DNA of 64,000 bases from Eledone cirrhosa (Eukaryota). Of this stretch, positions 28,777-34,032 are shown piece after piece. The stretch's first letter is position 1. Every line of letters begins with the position of its first letter. The DNA lies in the NCBI GenBank assembly GCA_964016885.1, contig OZ024749.1, positions 52,638,001-52,702,000 of the forward strand. Reading direction: 5' to 3'. Position numbers and translations under genes: made by a program. The notes under the pieces were generated by a model that saw nothing but the letters and a program-made list of their open reading frames with translations, had not been told where the DNA came from and did not search any database.

Positions 28777-28970
28777 TAACGAAGGAAATGTGGTAAGGAA
28801 CCAGGTAGACCATAACGCACCAAAGTACTCAATACTTAGGGTAGTAGAGTGGGTAATAGGAACGAGTAGGACCCCGACGGCTGAGCTCAAGCCGTTTCGA
28901 CGGCTAATTCTGTCTAGAATTAGCCGTCGAAACGGCTTGAGCTTAGCCGTCGGGGTCCTACTCGTTCCTA
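28777..28970. mobile_element. Fold-back element of the GUC-hammerhead family (long arm + short arm) in (TA)n
   Basis: TAGGAACGAGTAGGACCCCGACGGCTGAGCTCAAGCCGTTTCGACGGCTAATTCT followed by its reverse complement. Confidence 0.85.
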
Positions 28971-29058
28971 TATATATATATAAGAGAGTATTGAAGTTTG
29001 CTTGAAGCATTGTGGAATAATACATTTTTTTTTTTTGTCGTTTTGGAAGCCTCAACTA

Positions 29059-29940
29059 TTCAGTTTATATATATTTTTATAAAGTATTTCCGCGGGAAGG
29101 GTAAAGGACATGAGAGTAAAACCTTTGGTAAATGAAATAACTGTCTTGTGTTGTTTATTAGATAACTCTCTCTCTCTCTCTCTCTCTCTCTATATATATA
29201 TATATATATATATATATATATATATATATATATATTGTCGTTTTGGAAGCCTCAACAATGCAGATGGGTAAATCTCCGGGTAACAGAATCCGGTAGTGAA
29301 GAGGGGGAGATGTAAGGGAATGTAGAATGAGATGTATAGTGTGTAGAGGAACGTAGGAAAGAGCGTAAAAAATAAAAATAATAACACGAGATAGAGTTAC
29401 CTTGGGAGAGATTTAATTGTCCCTATATTTCGGATTCGCATCCATCAACAGGGGTTTTTTGGGGGGGGGGATCTGTCGCAGAGGAAAACCCCCCAGTTGA
29501 TGGATGCGAATCCGAAATATACGGACAATTAAATCTCTCCCAAGGTAACTCTATCTCGTGTTATTATTTTTATGTTTTACGCTCTTTCCTACGTTCCTCT
29601 ACACACTATACATCTCATTCTACATTCCCTTACATCTCCCCCTCTTCACTACCGGATTCTGTTACCCGGAGATTTACCCATCTGCATTGTTGAGGCTTCC
29701 AAAACGACAATATATATATATATATATATATATATATATATATATATATATATATATATATATATATATATATATATATATATAGAGAGAGAGAGAGAGA
29801 GAGAGAGAGAGAGAGAGAGAGAGAGAGAGAGAGTTATCTAATAAACAACACAAGACAGTTATTTCATTTACCAAAGGTTTTACTCTCCTTTCCTTTACCC
29901 TTCCCGCGGAAATACTTAAAAAAAATATATATAAACTGAA
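29059..29940. repeat. ~880 bp composite palindrome (two element types plus microsatellite in each arm)
   Basis: 29059-29460 is the near-perfect reverse complement of 29485-29940; the same peptide appears in ORFs 29190..29387(-) and 29558..29785(+). Confidence 0.9.
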
Positions 29941-30000
29941 CCTGAACTGATAAGGTCAGGTTTCTTGGGTATGTCAACATTTATAAAACAAATTTTGTAT

Positions 30001-30055
30001 TTTATCTGATGGGGGCGTACCAAAATGTTGGTACCCTTGAAATATATATAATAAA
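30001..30055 (+). ncRNA. Hammerhead-like motif with an A9G core change
   Basis: TTTAT-CTGATGG-GGG.GTACCAA.AATG.TTGGTACCC.TT-GAAA-TATATA-TA^-ATAAA. Confidence 0.6.
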
Positions 30056-30122
30056 ATAAATATGGTTTTATAAATATAGTTTCCATTTATTAATATCATT
30101 GATATATATATATATATATATA

Positions 30123-30317
30123 TAACGAAGGAAATGTGGTAAGGAACCAGGTGGACCATAACGCACCAAAGTACTCAATACTTGAGGTAGTAGAGTGGGT
30201 AATAGGAACCAGTAAGACCCCGACAGCTGAGCTCAAGCCGTTTCGACGGCTAATTCTTGTCCAGAATTAGCCGTCGAAACGGCTTGAGCTCAGCTGTCGG
30301 GGTCTTACTGGTTCCTA
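30123..30317. mobile_element. Fold-back element, GUC-hammerhead family (long + short arm)
   Basis: Same sequence and layout as 28777-28970; (TA)n on both sides. Confidence 0.85.
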
Positions 30318-31229
30318 TATATATATATATATATATATATAAATGAAAGGTATAGAAATTGTTTTAGCGAGAAGCTAATAGTATTCTATAACATATATGC
30401 GACTATATCGTCAAGATGGGAAAAGTAGTTAACGTAAGATTTAGGAAAAATAATTCAAACTCATCTCAAAAGAGAATCAGGATATAAATTCATCCACAGA
30501 ATTTAGTGAAATCCGGGGAAAAATCAATAGACCTTTAACTCATGATAAAATAAAGTTTAAAACACTTATCCTTCAATTTGGAATAACATCAAATGCTCTG
30601 TATAGTCTTAAAAGACTATTTCATGAAAACTTTCAGTGGAGATGGTCACGATTGGATTTCAATCGTCAGCAGAGCTCAACAGATAACCAGGGCTACCACA
30701 GTATTATAAGCCGAAAAGGGAATTCTAAAACTGGCTAGTTCGCCGTCATACGTGATTATGAAAACGCACACATATATATATATATATATATATATATATA
30801 TATATATATATGTAGGAGGTGAGTTTTATTGTAGTACAATAAAGCAATGCAGATATCGGATACTCTCATCTCCTCCCCCTTTTTTCATCCTTTCCACCCC
30901 CCCTCCCTAAATAAAATATTTTTTCCTCGTACATATCTTCCCTTCGTTAATTTTCAAATTCTTTTAATTTATACATTATCTTCCAACGGTTTTCAACCTC
31001 TCTATGTAAAAACAATATATCTTCTCTCAGTTATAAAAACTATCTCTTTCTCTCTATCACCCATCTCTCCCTCTCATCTCCTCCCCTTTTTCATCCTTTC
31101 CACCCCCCCCCCTCTCTAAATAAAATATTTTTCCCAATATCACACATCAATCTAAAACCACTTTTCATATGTTGATTTAAAACTGCACCATCCACAAGTG
31201 TTTTTTAGCCTTCATATCATGTTCTCCTG

Positions 31230-31296
31230 TTTTATCTGATGAAAACACAAATATTATTGCATAATGATGTTTGTTTTTGAAATGCGCATAATAAAA
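31230..31296 (+). ncRNA. Type I hammerhead ribozyme motif, intact core
   Basis: TTTTAT-CTGATGA-(long AT-rich stem II)-GAAA-TGCGCA-TA^-ATAAAA; 6-bp stem I; palindromic stem III ATGCGCAT. Confidence 0.8.
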
Positions 31297-31453
31297 TACA
31301 TGGAACTCCTTTAACCATCTTTTGATCTTATATTATATATATATATATATATATATATATATATATATATGTGTGTGTGTGTGTGTGTGTGTGTGTGTGT
31401 GTGTGTGTGTGTGTGTGTGTGTGTGTGTATATATATATATATATATATATATA

Positions 31454-31562
31454 TAGGAACGAGTAGGACCCCGATGGCTGAGCTCAAGCCGTTTCTACGG
31501 CTAATTCAGAATTAGCCGTAGAAACGGCTTGAGCTCAGCCGTCGGGGTCTTACTGGTTCCTA
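31454..31562. mobile_element. Fold-back element, GUC-hammerhead family (two short arms)
   Basis: Near-perfect palindrome centred on CTAATTCAGAATTAG, within (TA)n. Confidence 0.85.
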
Positions 31563-31742
31563 TATATATATATATATACATATATATATATATATATATA
31601 TATATATATATATATATATATATATACACACACACACACACACACACACATACACACACACATATATATATATATATATATATATATATATATATATATA
31701 TATATATATATATATATATATATATATATATATATATATATA

Positions 31743-31863
31743 TAGGAACCAGTAAGACCCCGACGGCTGAGCTCAAGCCGTTTCGACGGCTAATTCTGGA
31801 ATTAGTCCAGAATTAGCCGTCGAAACGGCTTGAGCTCAGCCGTCGGGGTCTTACTGGTTCCTA
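31743..31863. mobile_element. Fold-back element, GUC-hammerhead family (two short arms)
   Basis: Perfect arms around the centre CTGGAATTAGTCCAG, within (TA)n. Confidence 0.85.
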
Positions 31864-33830
31864 TATATATATATATATATATATATATATATATATATAT
31901 ATATATATATATATGTGTGTATGTGTGTGTGTGTGTGTGTGTGTGTGTGTGTGTGTGTGTGTGTGCGCGTGTGTGGTTATGTGTATGTGTGTTTGTGTAT
32001 GTGTATGTATGTGTATCTATGTATGTATGTATGTGTGTGTGATAGTAAAAGTAGTTTTCCAAGAGTACGTGGAAATTTATTTTAGGTCATCTCTCTCTCT
32101 CTTTCTCTACCTATCTATCTGTATCTTTCTCTTTCTCTTGCATTCTTTCTTTCTCTCTCTCTCTCTCTCTCGCATTCGTTTTCTCTCTCTCTTTCTCTTC
32201 TTCTTTTGCATTCGTTTTCTCTCTCTCTCTCTCTCTCTCTCTCTCTCTCTCTCTCTCTCTCTCTCTCTCTCTCTCTCTCTCTCTCTCTCTCTCTCTTTCT
32301 CTCTCGCATTCGTTCTCTTTCTCGACCTGTCTTTTATCAAATGTAGATCACTACAGTCTCTCCTTTTTCTCTCTCTCTCTGTTTTCTCTTTCTCTTCGTA
32401 TTTGTGAAGGAGGGCAGATATATGTGTATCTGTATGTGTGTATGTGTGTGTAATTCTCGGAAATGACCAAGTTATTTCCCATCAATGAGTAATCATACAC
32501 AATGACAACATATTTTTTCCTCTGCTGCCACACCGTCTTTTTTGTTCTATGTATCTTTACCCTTTCTAGCAGTCTCTCTCTCTGTTAGCCTCTTCCTCAC
32601 CTCACCCTTCACTCACTCATTCTCTGCCACTACCTCTCCTCCTCCTCCTCCTCTTTCTTCCCGTTTGACCTGTGAGTAACTCTTTTCTCTCACATTCTCG
32701 GCATGAGCTGGTCAGAATTTTTTCTCTCGCGTCTACGATTTCACAGAACTTATGTTTACCGAATTCGCAGACCAGACCCCTTCTTCCTCCCGTTAGACCT
32801 GCGCGAAATTCCTTCCTTGCTCACATTTCAACCAGGTTTGATGGTCTTTATTCTCTCGTTCACGATTTCACCGAACTTAAATTCATAGAAATCTGGGACT
32901 TGTCTCCTTTCCTCACTTTCTGTTGCCTCACCATTTTGTTTGTTCACCCTCGCGTCCCCTTTATTTTCGTGTCCCAACGACTTTTTTTAGCCGTTGCTCG
33001 CACCAACCGGAGGTATATGGTCTTTAAAGCGATGAAATACCTATGATAGTTGGAAGATCACTGATGAAGGACAAACTTTTTTCATATATATATATATATC
33101 TTGTTATACTTTGGGAGGGTCATGTTGCCAATAAGAAACACACGCACCAGTTGCCCTCACTTCAATTTATTATATATTTATAAATTTATAAATTTACAAA
33201 TCTACAAACTTATAAATTTCTGGTTGGTTGGTTGGTTCCACAACCAGATAGTTGTTTATATATAGTCATAGTCCTTTCGTCACACACTCTGTGACCTCTT
33301 CAGTGACCGGGGATTCCTTTCCCTTGTTTCTATGCCTTTCTTTTCTTCTGTCCTACGCCATTTTGTTTCTGTGTGTGTGTTGTGTGCTCAGTTTGCGCAT
33401 GCGCCACATCCGGGTGTCTGTGTGTGTTTGTGTTCATTTATCTATTTGTTTATTTATTTATTTATTTATTGTTGGTTGGTTGTTTGTTCTATGTGTGTGT
33501 GTGTTTTCATTTTGTCCTTAATTGTAAGTTGTGATGTTGCTGTTCCACTCATATTTTCTATTTAATTTTGGTTGTAATTCTTTTATGCTTACTGCCTCTG
33601 TAATTTGCCTAAACATTGCATCTTTTCTGTGTGTGGATTCTATTTTTATTTCTATGTTCTCTAATTTACCCCTGTGTTCTATCTTAGCAACTGGTGCGCG
33701 TGTTTCTTATTGGCAACATGACCCTCCCAAAGTATAACAATATCGGTTTCAACACACGTTTTCAGATAAAGAATCTTGCTAAACAAATTCAGAAACGAAA
33801 TATATATATATATATATATATATATATATA

Positions 33831-34032
33831 TAGGAACAAGTAGGACCCCGACGGCTGAGCTCAAGCTGTTTCGACAGCTAATTCTGGACTGAGTCCAGAA
33901 TTAGCCGTCGAAACGGCTTGAGCTCAGCCGTCGGGGTCCTACTTGTTCCTATCACCAACTCTACTACCCTAAGTATTGAGTACTTTTGGTGCGTTATGGT
34001 CCATCTGGTTCCTTACCACATTTCCTTCGTTA
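33831..34032. mobile_element. Fold-back element, GUC-hammerhead family (short + long arm)
   Basis: Centre CTGGACTGAGTCCAG; long arm ends CATTTCCTTCGT-(TA)n. Confidence 0.85.

Follow-up and report, generated by a model that had tools for sequence, protein, structure and literature searches.

Within the Penelope-like retroelements (PLEs), members of the Hydra clade such as Hydra-1_Obim and Penelope-13_HM insert into (TA)n, carry a hammerhead ribozyme in sense orientation near the 3′ end and a 5′-truncated inverted copy at the 5′ end, and encode a C-terminal endonuclease together with the motifs DKT, CxCX5C and CxxC/CxH, the latter two next to a conserved E and N, respectively (Craig et al. 2021, PMC8557442). 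All of these features recur in a family represented by five palindromes in the window, i.e. the whole stretch of 64,000 nucleotides of contig OZ024749.1 (positions 52,638,001 to 52,702,000, forward strand) analysed here. Each palindrome is composed of two arms joined head to head, and it is near certain that the palindromes are stubs of a Hydra-clade PLE. The architecture of an inverted copy plus a tail is already known, and the family is an extreme and informative form of a known kind of element. In contrast to the Hydra clade as described, stubs devoid of the open reading frame (ORF) outnumber the long copies, the unit measures 3.54 kb rather than less than 3 kb, the tail comprises 77 nt instead of 30-40 nt, RWK is replaced by RWR, and the hammerhead has a U3:A8 pair and a stem II of about 50 nt, whereas the Hydra hammerheads in File S2 all have C3:G8 and a short stem II (PMC8557442).

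Two internal start sites of the reverse transcriptase (RT) that bracket the tail, cleavage and extension of both target strands, an AT-rich target and a hammerhead just upstream of the start sites would be shared with Poseidon PAc from Anolis carolinensis (Frangieh et al. 2024, PMC11167929). In PAc the ORF starts inside the hammerhead and no RNA reads were found to end at the cut site, while in the present family the start sites lie in a predicted 5′ untranslated region (UTR) of 231 nt and the junctions suggest both capped and ribozyme-cut templates. Head-to-head pseudo-long terminal repeats (pLTRs) with an optional one-sided tail, as well as TATA- or initiator-like motifs or an internal promoter, are also known from the inverted pLTRs of Penelope elements in Adineta and Drosophila, for which self-priming on an antisense template was proposed (PMC3846280, PMC2377424); here, instead, a sharp wall beyond which arms rarely extend, a cap-like base and independent arm lengths are found. 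Non-LTR retrozymes are, like the stubs, small non-coding PLE derivatives with type I hammerheads, and occur as tandem direct repeats with complete ribozymes and circular RNA (PMC7229834; bioRxiv 10.64898/2026.07.22.740005). The stubs differ from them in being inverted and in missing half of the core, and probably represent dead ends. In twin priming of L1, two target-primed complementary DNAs (cDNAs) are joined by microhomology to give a 5′ inversion, the second primer being used at variable internal sites and the two parts being free of overlap, whereas the present family has fixed start sites for both cDNAs, and its two arms are copies of one and the same stretch. How the inverted pLTR-plus-tail of PLEs is formed and which role the hammerhead plays are regarded as open questions (PMC8557442, PMC11167929). 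Neither a run-off wall nor a cap base nor a strict long/short rule in PLE stubs was found in searches of the open-access literature.

The palindromes and the tail rule

A 23-nt probe taken from the arm matches the 3.0-Gb genome exactly at 27,336 places, as against no match for its reversed control, so that the window copies are a sample of a large family. At least 18,335 palindromes have 0-70 nt between their two GAAAC motifs, 713 have 71-170 nt, and a further 2,154 long/short copies show an even shorter spacing. With matched probes for the two kinds of end, 8,200 long/short palindromes were counted, as opposed to 67 short/short (60 in reverse) and 86 long/long (89 in reverse), i.e. about 98% (8,200 of about 8,356 classified palindromes) have one tailed and one tail-less end where random pairing of ends would predict 50%. 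Because of this strict pairing the long arm is identified as the one with the PLE tail. Four of 19 fetched 'short/short' loci turned out to be tailed arms interrupted by a TA run; mirror-copied flanks as a source of such copies were seen in two of the 19 only and are not supported. Both arms are of the same subfamily in 67 of 68 long/short, 15 of 16 short/short and 8 of 11 long/long typed pairs, and therefore one source normally gives both arms.

Three of the five window copies are long/short and two are short/short. Copy 1 (28779-28968, GAGTAGG subfamily) combines a tailed arm on the minus strand (28779-28912), which reaches to -14 from GAAAC, with a tail-less plus-strand arm (28912-28968) reaching to -17. 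Copy 2 (30125-30315, CAGTAAG subfamily) is built alike from a tailed minus arm (30125-30257, -13), an extra T and a tail-less plus arm (30259-30315, -17). The order is reversed in copy 5 (33833-34030), where a tail-less minus arm (33833-33890) ending exactly at -18 and a tailed plus arm (33892-34030) starting at the A at -18 are separated by a single G at 33891, which is either derived from the cap or the templated base that one subfamily has at -19. Both copy 3 (31456-31560, hinge at 31508) and copy 4 (31745-31861, hinge at 31801-31805, the first 52 nt identical between the arms) are short/short. The left arm of copy 3 is of the GAGTAGG type and the right arm of the CAGTAAG type; despite the two subfamilies, an identical C-to-A change precedes GAAAC on both. 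Two short/short copies side by side are atypical: region 31456-31861 holds two of about 67 in the genome, 184 bp apart and with mirror-like microsatellite flanks, one of them chimeric.

BLAST of the five copies against their own inverted sequence gives E values of 1e-39 to 1e-50. The preliminary description of these palindromes is upheld as to their places, with true ends 2 nt inside the TA run, and as to (TA)n beyond both ends and half a hammerhead (GAAAC, stem III, GTC-GGGG) on each arm. It also holds that the hinge differs per copy, the GAAAC-to-GAAAC spacings in copies 1-5 being 30, 31, 25, 37 and 37 nt, so that each hinge represents a separate event. Arms that end either short or about 80 nt further on are both present as described, although their short/short pairing is rare genome-wide. 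The degraded sixth copy reported near 47.2 kb is a diverged long/short copy of a related subfamily (47189-47331; 82% identity over 122 columns); its long end lacks (TA)n, and its hinge is closer to stem III.

In the plus-strand arm of copy 5 the hammerhead half (33892-33949) comprises the 3′ strand of stem II, GAAAC (33910-33914), stem III with a palindromic loop, the cut site after 33932, the 3′ strand of stem I and the short start site at 33949. The PLE tail (33950-34030, plus strand; 77 nt in the reference unit) fills the space between the short and the long start site. A 13-codon upstream ORF begins within this tail at 33996 (also in locus L257), 104 nt into the predicted 5′ UTR.

The palindromes are real. 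A fold-back artefact of assembly or library has hardly any probability, although no read or contig across a named window copy with both flanks was seen in short-read contigs that are too fragmented for it. The two arms have changed independently (in 62 pairs, 74 differences are private and 2 shared; divergence from the majority is 1.7%), and in 28 of 30 long/short loci the unique sequence to the left bears no relation to that on the right. Three Illumina runs of another study contain inversion joints with one side at -17 to -22 as well as both (TA)n ends (loosely matched; 7,398-10,149 reads for the long and 2,596-2,907 for the short site), and many joints to -17/-16 are found in short-read contigs. 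The restriction-site-associated DNA (RAD) libraries are cut at an AATT inside the arm (position 1639 of L235), and the drop in depth was not used to define the wall.

The parent element and its hammerhead

Ten of the first 30 probe loci are non-palindromic, with shared sequence continuing upstream, and from such loci a parent was traced whose ORF contains RT and endonuclease motifs. A search for read-through of the tail led to tandem units of 3.54 kb (3,542 bp spacing) with open ORFs of 717-719 amino acids, in which the tail runs on into the 5′ UTR and then into the ORF. With the G of GAAAC as the origin, the unit has its cut site at +23, its short and long ends at +42 and +119, respectively, and its start codon (ATG) at +213. 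Both ends coincide with an internal TA that matches the target, the parent loci being inserted in (TA)n. Inverted copies are also present in long loci (L031-L033, L332-L348), and long copies are 5′-truncated at random.

The predicted structure of the ORF product (pLDDT 87.8) has TERT as its best fold match (E 7.6e-9), while Pfam and PDB sequence searches with the ORF and its alignment returned nothing. Among 2,027 homologs the nearest are mostly 38-43% identical over the full length. A C-terminal YIG...RLYQH motif was recognised by eye, and the best homolog has Pfam GIY-YIG. DKT is found at 117-119 (DKG changed), followed by RWR, where aligned homologs have RWK, and the ORF contains CNCPDRSIC (CxCX5C), CNLCSEE (CxxC by E) and N...CKH (CxH by N). 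The canonical layout of the endonuclease is CCHH; here a single C lies between the GIY-like and YIG strands, and CCHH is absent. Judged by these motifs, with the references compared by eye, the parent ORF appears to fit the Hydra clade (PMC8557442). The family appears to be common to a second species, because a short-read contig from another organism matches the stem II region of the parent exactly (30 letters shown).

Short, inverted, TA-flanked and present in many copies, the palindromes could be mistaken for miniature inverted-repeat transposable elements (MITEs), i.e. for a DNA transposon with terminal inverted repeats and TA target duplications. This reading is refuted by the autonomous parent with its TERT-like RT, GIY-YIG-type C-terminus, tandem units and random 5′ truncation in long copies; the ends, moreover, differ by the tail in 98% of the copies and the hinges vary from copy to copy, so that its probability is negligible. 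Retro-insertion into (TA)n from a hammerhead-bearing parent, as had been proposed, is supported.

The parental hammerhead consists of ACCCC, UUGANAA, a long imperfect stem II, GAAA, stem III with a palindromic loop, GUC and GGGGU, and its minimum-free-energy fold is a three-way junction of stems I-III. The non-palindromic parents sought in the preliminary description thus exist and have ACCCC upstream, but their core reads UUGANAA rather than CTGANGA. While the 5′ half of the core is indeed absent from the copies, no CUGANGA half was there to be lost; the hammerhead reading was kept on account of the compensatory U3:A8 core. This pair is a natural active covariant of the hammerhead core (PMC3088659). 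As many as 6,145 arms retain the entire motif and thus extend past the wall; in these, core position 7 is occupied by all four bases while its neighbours are fixed. A minority of arms has C3 opposite A8, and across aligned parents the stems are nearly invariant. The assignment of the parent as a type I hammerhead with a U3:A8 core stands, with self-cleavage as a prediction from its sequence. In the window, a scan with Rfam gave sub-threshold microRNA (miRNA) hairpins only, and a custom hammerhead scan gave two matches, neither of them convincing.

Arm ends, junctions and mechanism

The mechanism that best accounts for the stubs, and which we consider probable, is the run-off of two separately primed cDNAs from a capped RNA that starts inside the hammerhead. 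The RT of the element would likely prime two cDNAs on the two cut strands of the (TA)n target, at two internal start sites, one for each side of the insertion; both cDNAs would run off the 5′ end of the RNA, and their ends would then likely be linked by end-joining repair. In vitro, another PLE has been shown to use two internal RT start sites and to extend both target strands (PMC11167929). The wall would correspond to the place, at the A of YAGT within stem II, where Pol II starts a capped transcript, and an mRNA that begins there would lack the 5′ half of the core and hence be unable to remove its own cap by cleavage. Stubs would be formed when the start sites in the 5′ UTR are primed instead of their counterparts at the 3′ end of a read-through transcript; a minor class ending at GUC may have been copied from ribozyme-cleaved RNA.

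The wall shows in the spacing of the GAAAC motifs (18,335 palindromes with 0-70 nt against 713 with 71-170 nt) and in 90 stubs, namely the first 90 long/short copies listed. No arm extends beyond -24 in 88 of them, an end lies at -17 to -21 in 61, and the 5′ core is reached in none. The modal end is the A of YAGT, of which AGT is invariant in 12 aligned parents, and TATTTAAA is found 29 nt upstream of this A; the two motifs resemble TATA and initiator elements. Template jumps that produced direct repeats without inversion were observed eight times in 30 read-through loci, six of them resuming at -14 to -21 and two at the cut site. When copying a cap, RT adds a C. Accordingly scored, the base following an end at -18 was C in 84 and T in 16 cases (first 100 of 504 matches, counted by hand and only where neither template nor partner arm explains the base; binomial p 3e-12). 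Seventeen loci were fetched from the 504 matches (15 early rows with C and two next to read-through sites): 16, spread over several subfamilies, are arm ends, and one is an inherited substitution. A 'GAGTCC subfamily' as the origin of the extra C explains one of these 17 loci and was rejected. At a second candidate start, -22, a natural variant confounds the control for the cap base.

A smaller class terminates where the ribozyme would cut. Seven of the first 50 very short copies have both arms ending at most 2 nt from this site, five of the seven being of one subfamily, and a direct pattern gave 141/152 hits, about 1% of the main class. Single-base inserts at these ends are A or T in 22 and C or G in 2 of 24 cases among the matches listed (hand count); CpG decay as the cause of the A/T bias was discarded (only 25/725, 3.4%). 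Mini tandem repeats arising from template jumps were also seen (L228, L229, L230, L232, L244, L249, L251, L253, L255). The jumps depart from either the wall or the cut site and land near the ATG (at +184 to +338 where mapped), and the resulting arrays look like precursors of retrozyme-type repeats.

The preliminary description left a choice between snap-back of one cDNA at stem II and twin priming. The latter fits; the former, as the main route, does not agree with the relation between the arms. The tail-less arm reaches further than the tailed one in 25 of the 90 stubs, and the junctions (32 with overlap, 11 blunt, 47 with inserts, some of these copied from nearby sequence and some poly-A/T) are such a mixture that they are consistent with end-joining. 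A reading by hand of 27 long loci found a longer tail-less arm in 9 (the difference reaching 2.4 kb), a longer tailed arm in 10 and arms of about equal length in 3, with 5 unclear. In the young copy L343 the tail-less arm measures 2,609 nt and the tailed arm 154 nt, at 99-100% identity; since the tail-less arm has extra sequence, fold-back from a tailed cDNA is impossible here without a later deletion. Because the arms are unequal, end-joined and either of them may be longer by kilobases, two separately primed cDNAs are favoured over snap-back. A more elaborate form, in which a cDNA from the long site folds back near the wall and is copied back, the endonuclease resolves the product at the short site and deletions follow, is quite unlikely. 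It would agree with the 67 of 68 pairs of one subfamily, with the equal arms in 15 of the 90 stubs and the longer tailed arm in 50, and, by later deletion, with seven of the 27 long loci that have near-equal arms; self-priming has been proposed for inverted junctions of PLEs (PMC3846280) and resolution by the endonuclease for the tail (PMC8557442). Beyond the tail-less arms with sequence absent from the tailed arm, however, many hinges have loops of 0-2 nt, too tight for base-paired self-priming, and the identical wall is found in the direct jumps where no inversion took place.

Several observations weigh against a two-primer run-off from a capped start. The excess of longer tailed over longer tail-less arms (50 versus 25 of 90) is one, and the seven long loci in which the arm ends lie within about 120 nt of each other are another, the latter being compatible with fold-back as well as with two run-offs from a single broken RNA. 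The TATTTAAA-type box shares sequence with the 5′ strand of stem II, the subfamily behind most stubs has degenerate forms of it (TATTCAAA/TATTCATA), and the wall is spread over -17 to -23 instead of being confined to a single base. In the unfiltered 90 stubs, 18 arm ends lie at -18 and the following base is C in 8, T in 6, G in 3 and A in 1, a slight C excess only, and A and G cannot be scored in this sample since template or partner arm explain them. C/G microhomology accounts for part of the cut-site ends. As to the ribozyme itself, Rfam searches of four parent loci up to E 10 gave no hammerhead match, and the stability of the fold equals that of shuffled sequences (z -0.25). Finally, transcription start and cap are read from genomic junctions alone.

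This last point equally speaks for a rival in which two cDNAs are made and are halted at the wall by a block, structural or protein-bound, in stem II of an RNA that extends further 5′. The wall does lie within the distal hairpin of stem II, on its 3′ strand, and the A-runs found there in several copies could represent stutter on UUU. We nevertheless hold such a block to be unlikely: stems I and III and the GC-rich part of stem II would be passed before a stop in the AU-rich part, a stall offers no cause for the C excess, the 6,145 intact arms traverse the wall, and in a second family, F2, the wall is equally sharp and located outside stem II.

The F2 family (43654-43783 in the window; L352-L366), which served as a control, is likewise associated with (TA)n, has a canonical CUGAUGA hammerhead and forms 6,399 palindromes. 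Fifteen fetched copies are mostly long/short; 13 of them retain at least one complete core and eight retain both, because the hinge is placed just 5′ of the core. Single examples of two more families also have their hinge upstream of the core. The hinge in stem II, as given in the preliminary description, therefore holds for the main family, but stem II does not dictate it, nor does ribozyme structure dictate the product. The palindromic product is general to these elements, while its position relative to the ribozyme is family-specific. The F2 tail is partly similar to that of the main family.

A strong-stop scheme of replication for PLEs, similar to that of retroviruses, is possible, if doubtful. 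In it, the mRNA would extend from the cap in one hammerhead to the cut in the next and thereby possess a terminal redundancy of 41 nt; RT would prime in the 5′ UTR, reach the cap and have to jump to the ribozyme-made 3′ end for a long copy to be completed. Palindromes would then be failed jumps, and the hammerhead would serve to produce the end at which a jump lands. Jumps that start from either 5′ end were observed. Against it weigh that subfamily chimeras are absent among 36 parent arms and that none of 100 listed intact arms, inspected by eye, has a cap-derived base.

Neighbouring repeats and significance

The window contains further repeats of related kinds. A third family, at 34380-34560, has its predicted hammerhead core on the minus strand, preceded upstream by a head-to-head junction, and shows long/short ends at the genomic locus L330. 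A fourth (TA)n family with a CTGATGA motif (29960-30105 and 26640-26790; also L086, L097, L115 and L223) has its head-to-head junctions upstream of this motif. Tail-to-tail palindromes centred on a (TA)n run occur at 28597-28687 and 47014-47175, the latter following a hammerhead-like CTGATGA motif at about 46960. Short elements with inverted ends beside (TA)n (33101-33740 and 10070-10231) recur in many of the fetched loci. A 476-bp palindrome (29235-29710, 94%) of another repeat family is nested in an outer inverted repeat (29074-29166 / 29833-29925) that includes mirrored (TC)n(TA)n tracts. Minisatellite arrays are located at 3174-4538 (period 38), 40120-41695 (45), 47855-49040 (21) and 57171-57637 (26), and a GC-richer segment at about 34770-34990 resembles, by eye, an RT fragment of a long interspersed nuclear element (LINE) with a YLDD-type motif.

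The family supplies tens of thousands of natural reaction products together with intact ORFs. These products predict start sites at +42 and +119, one per target strand, as well as a transcription start inside the ribozyme and the use of ribozyme-cut RNA in vivo. If the proposed mechanism is true, they would provide a direct handle on copying by a poorly understood class of retrotransposons. As self-folding hairpins of 100-190 bp, present at about six per megabase, the stubs are liable to misannotation as MITEs or miRNA hairpins. An unexplained excess of loci forming double-stranded RNA (dsRNA) and of hyper-editing is reported for octopus (PMC5625713); if the host is an octopod, the stubs would be candidates for the source of this excess.

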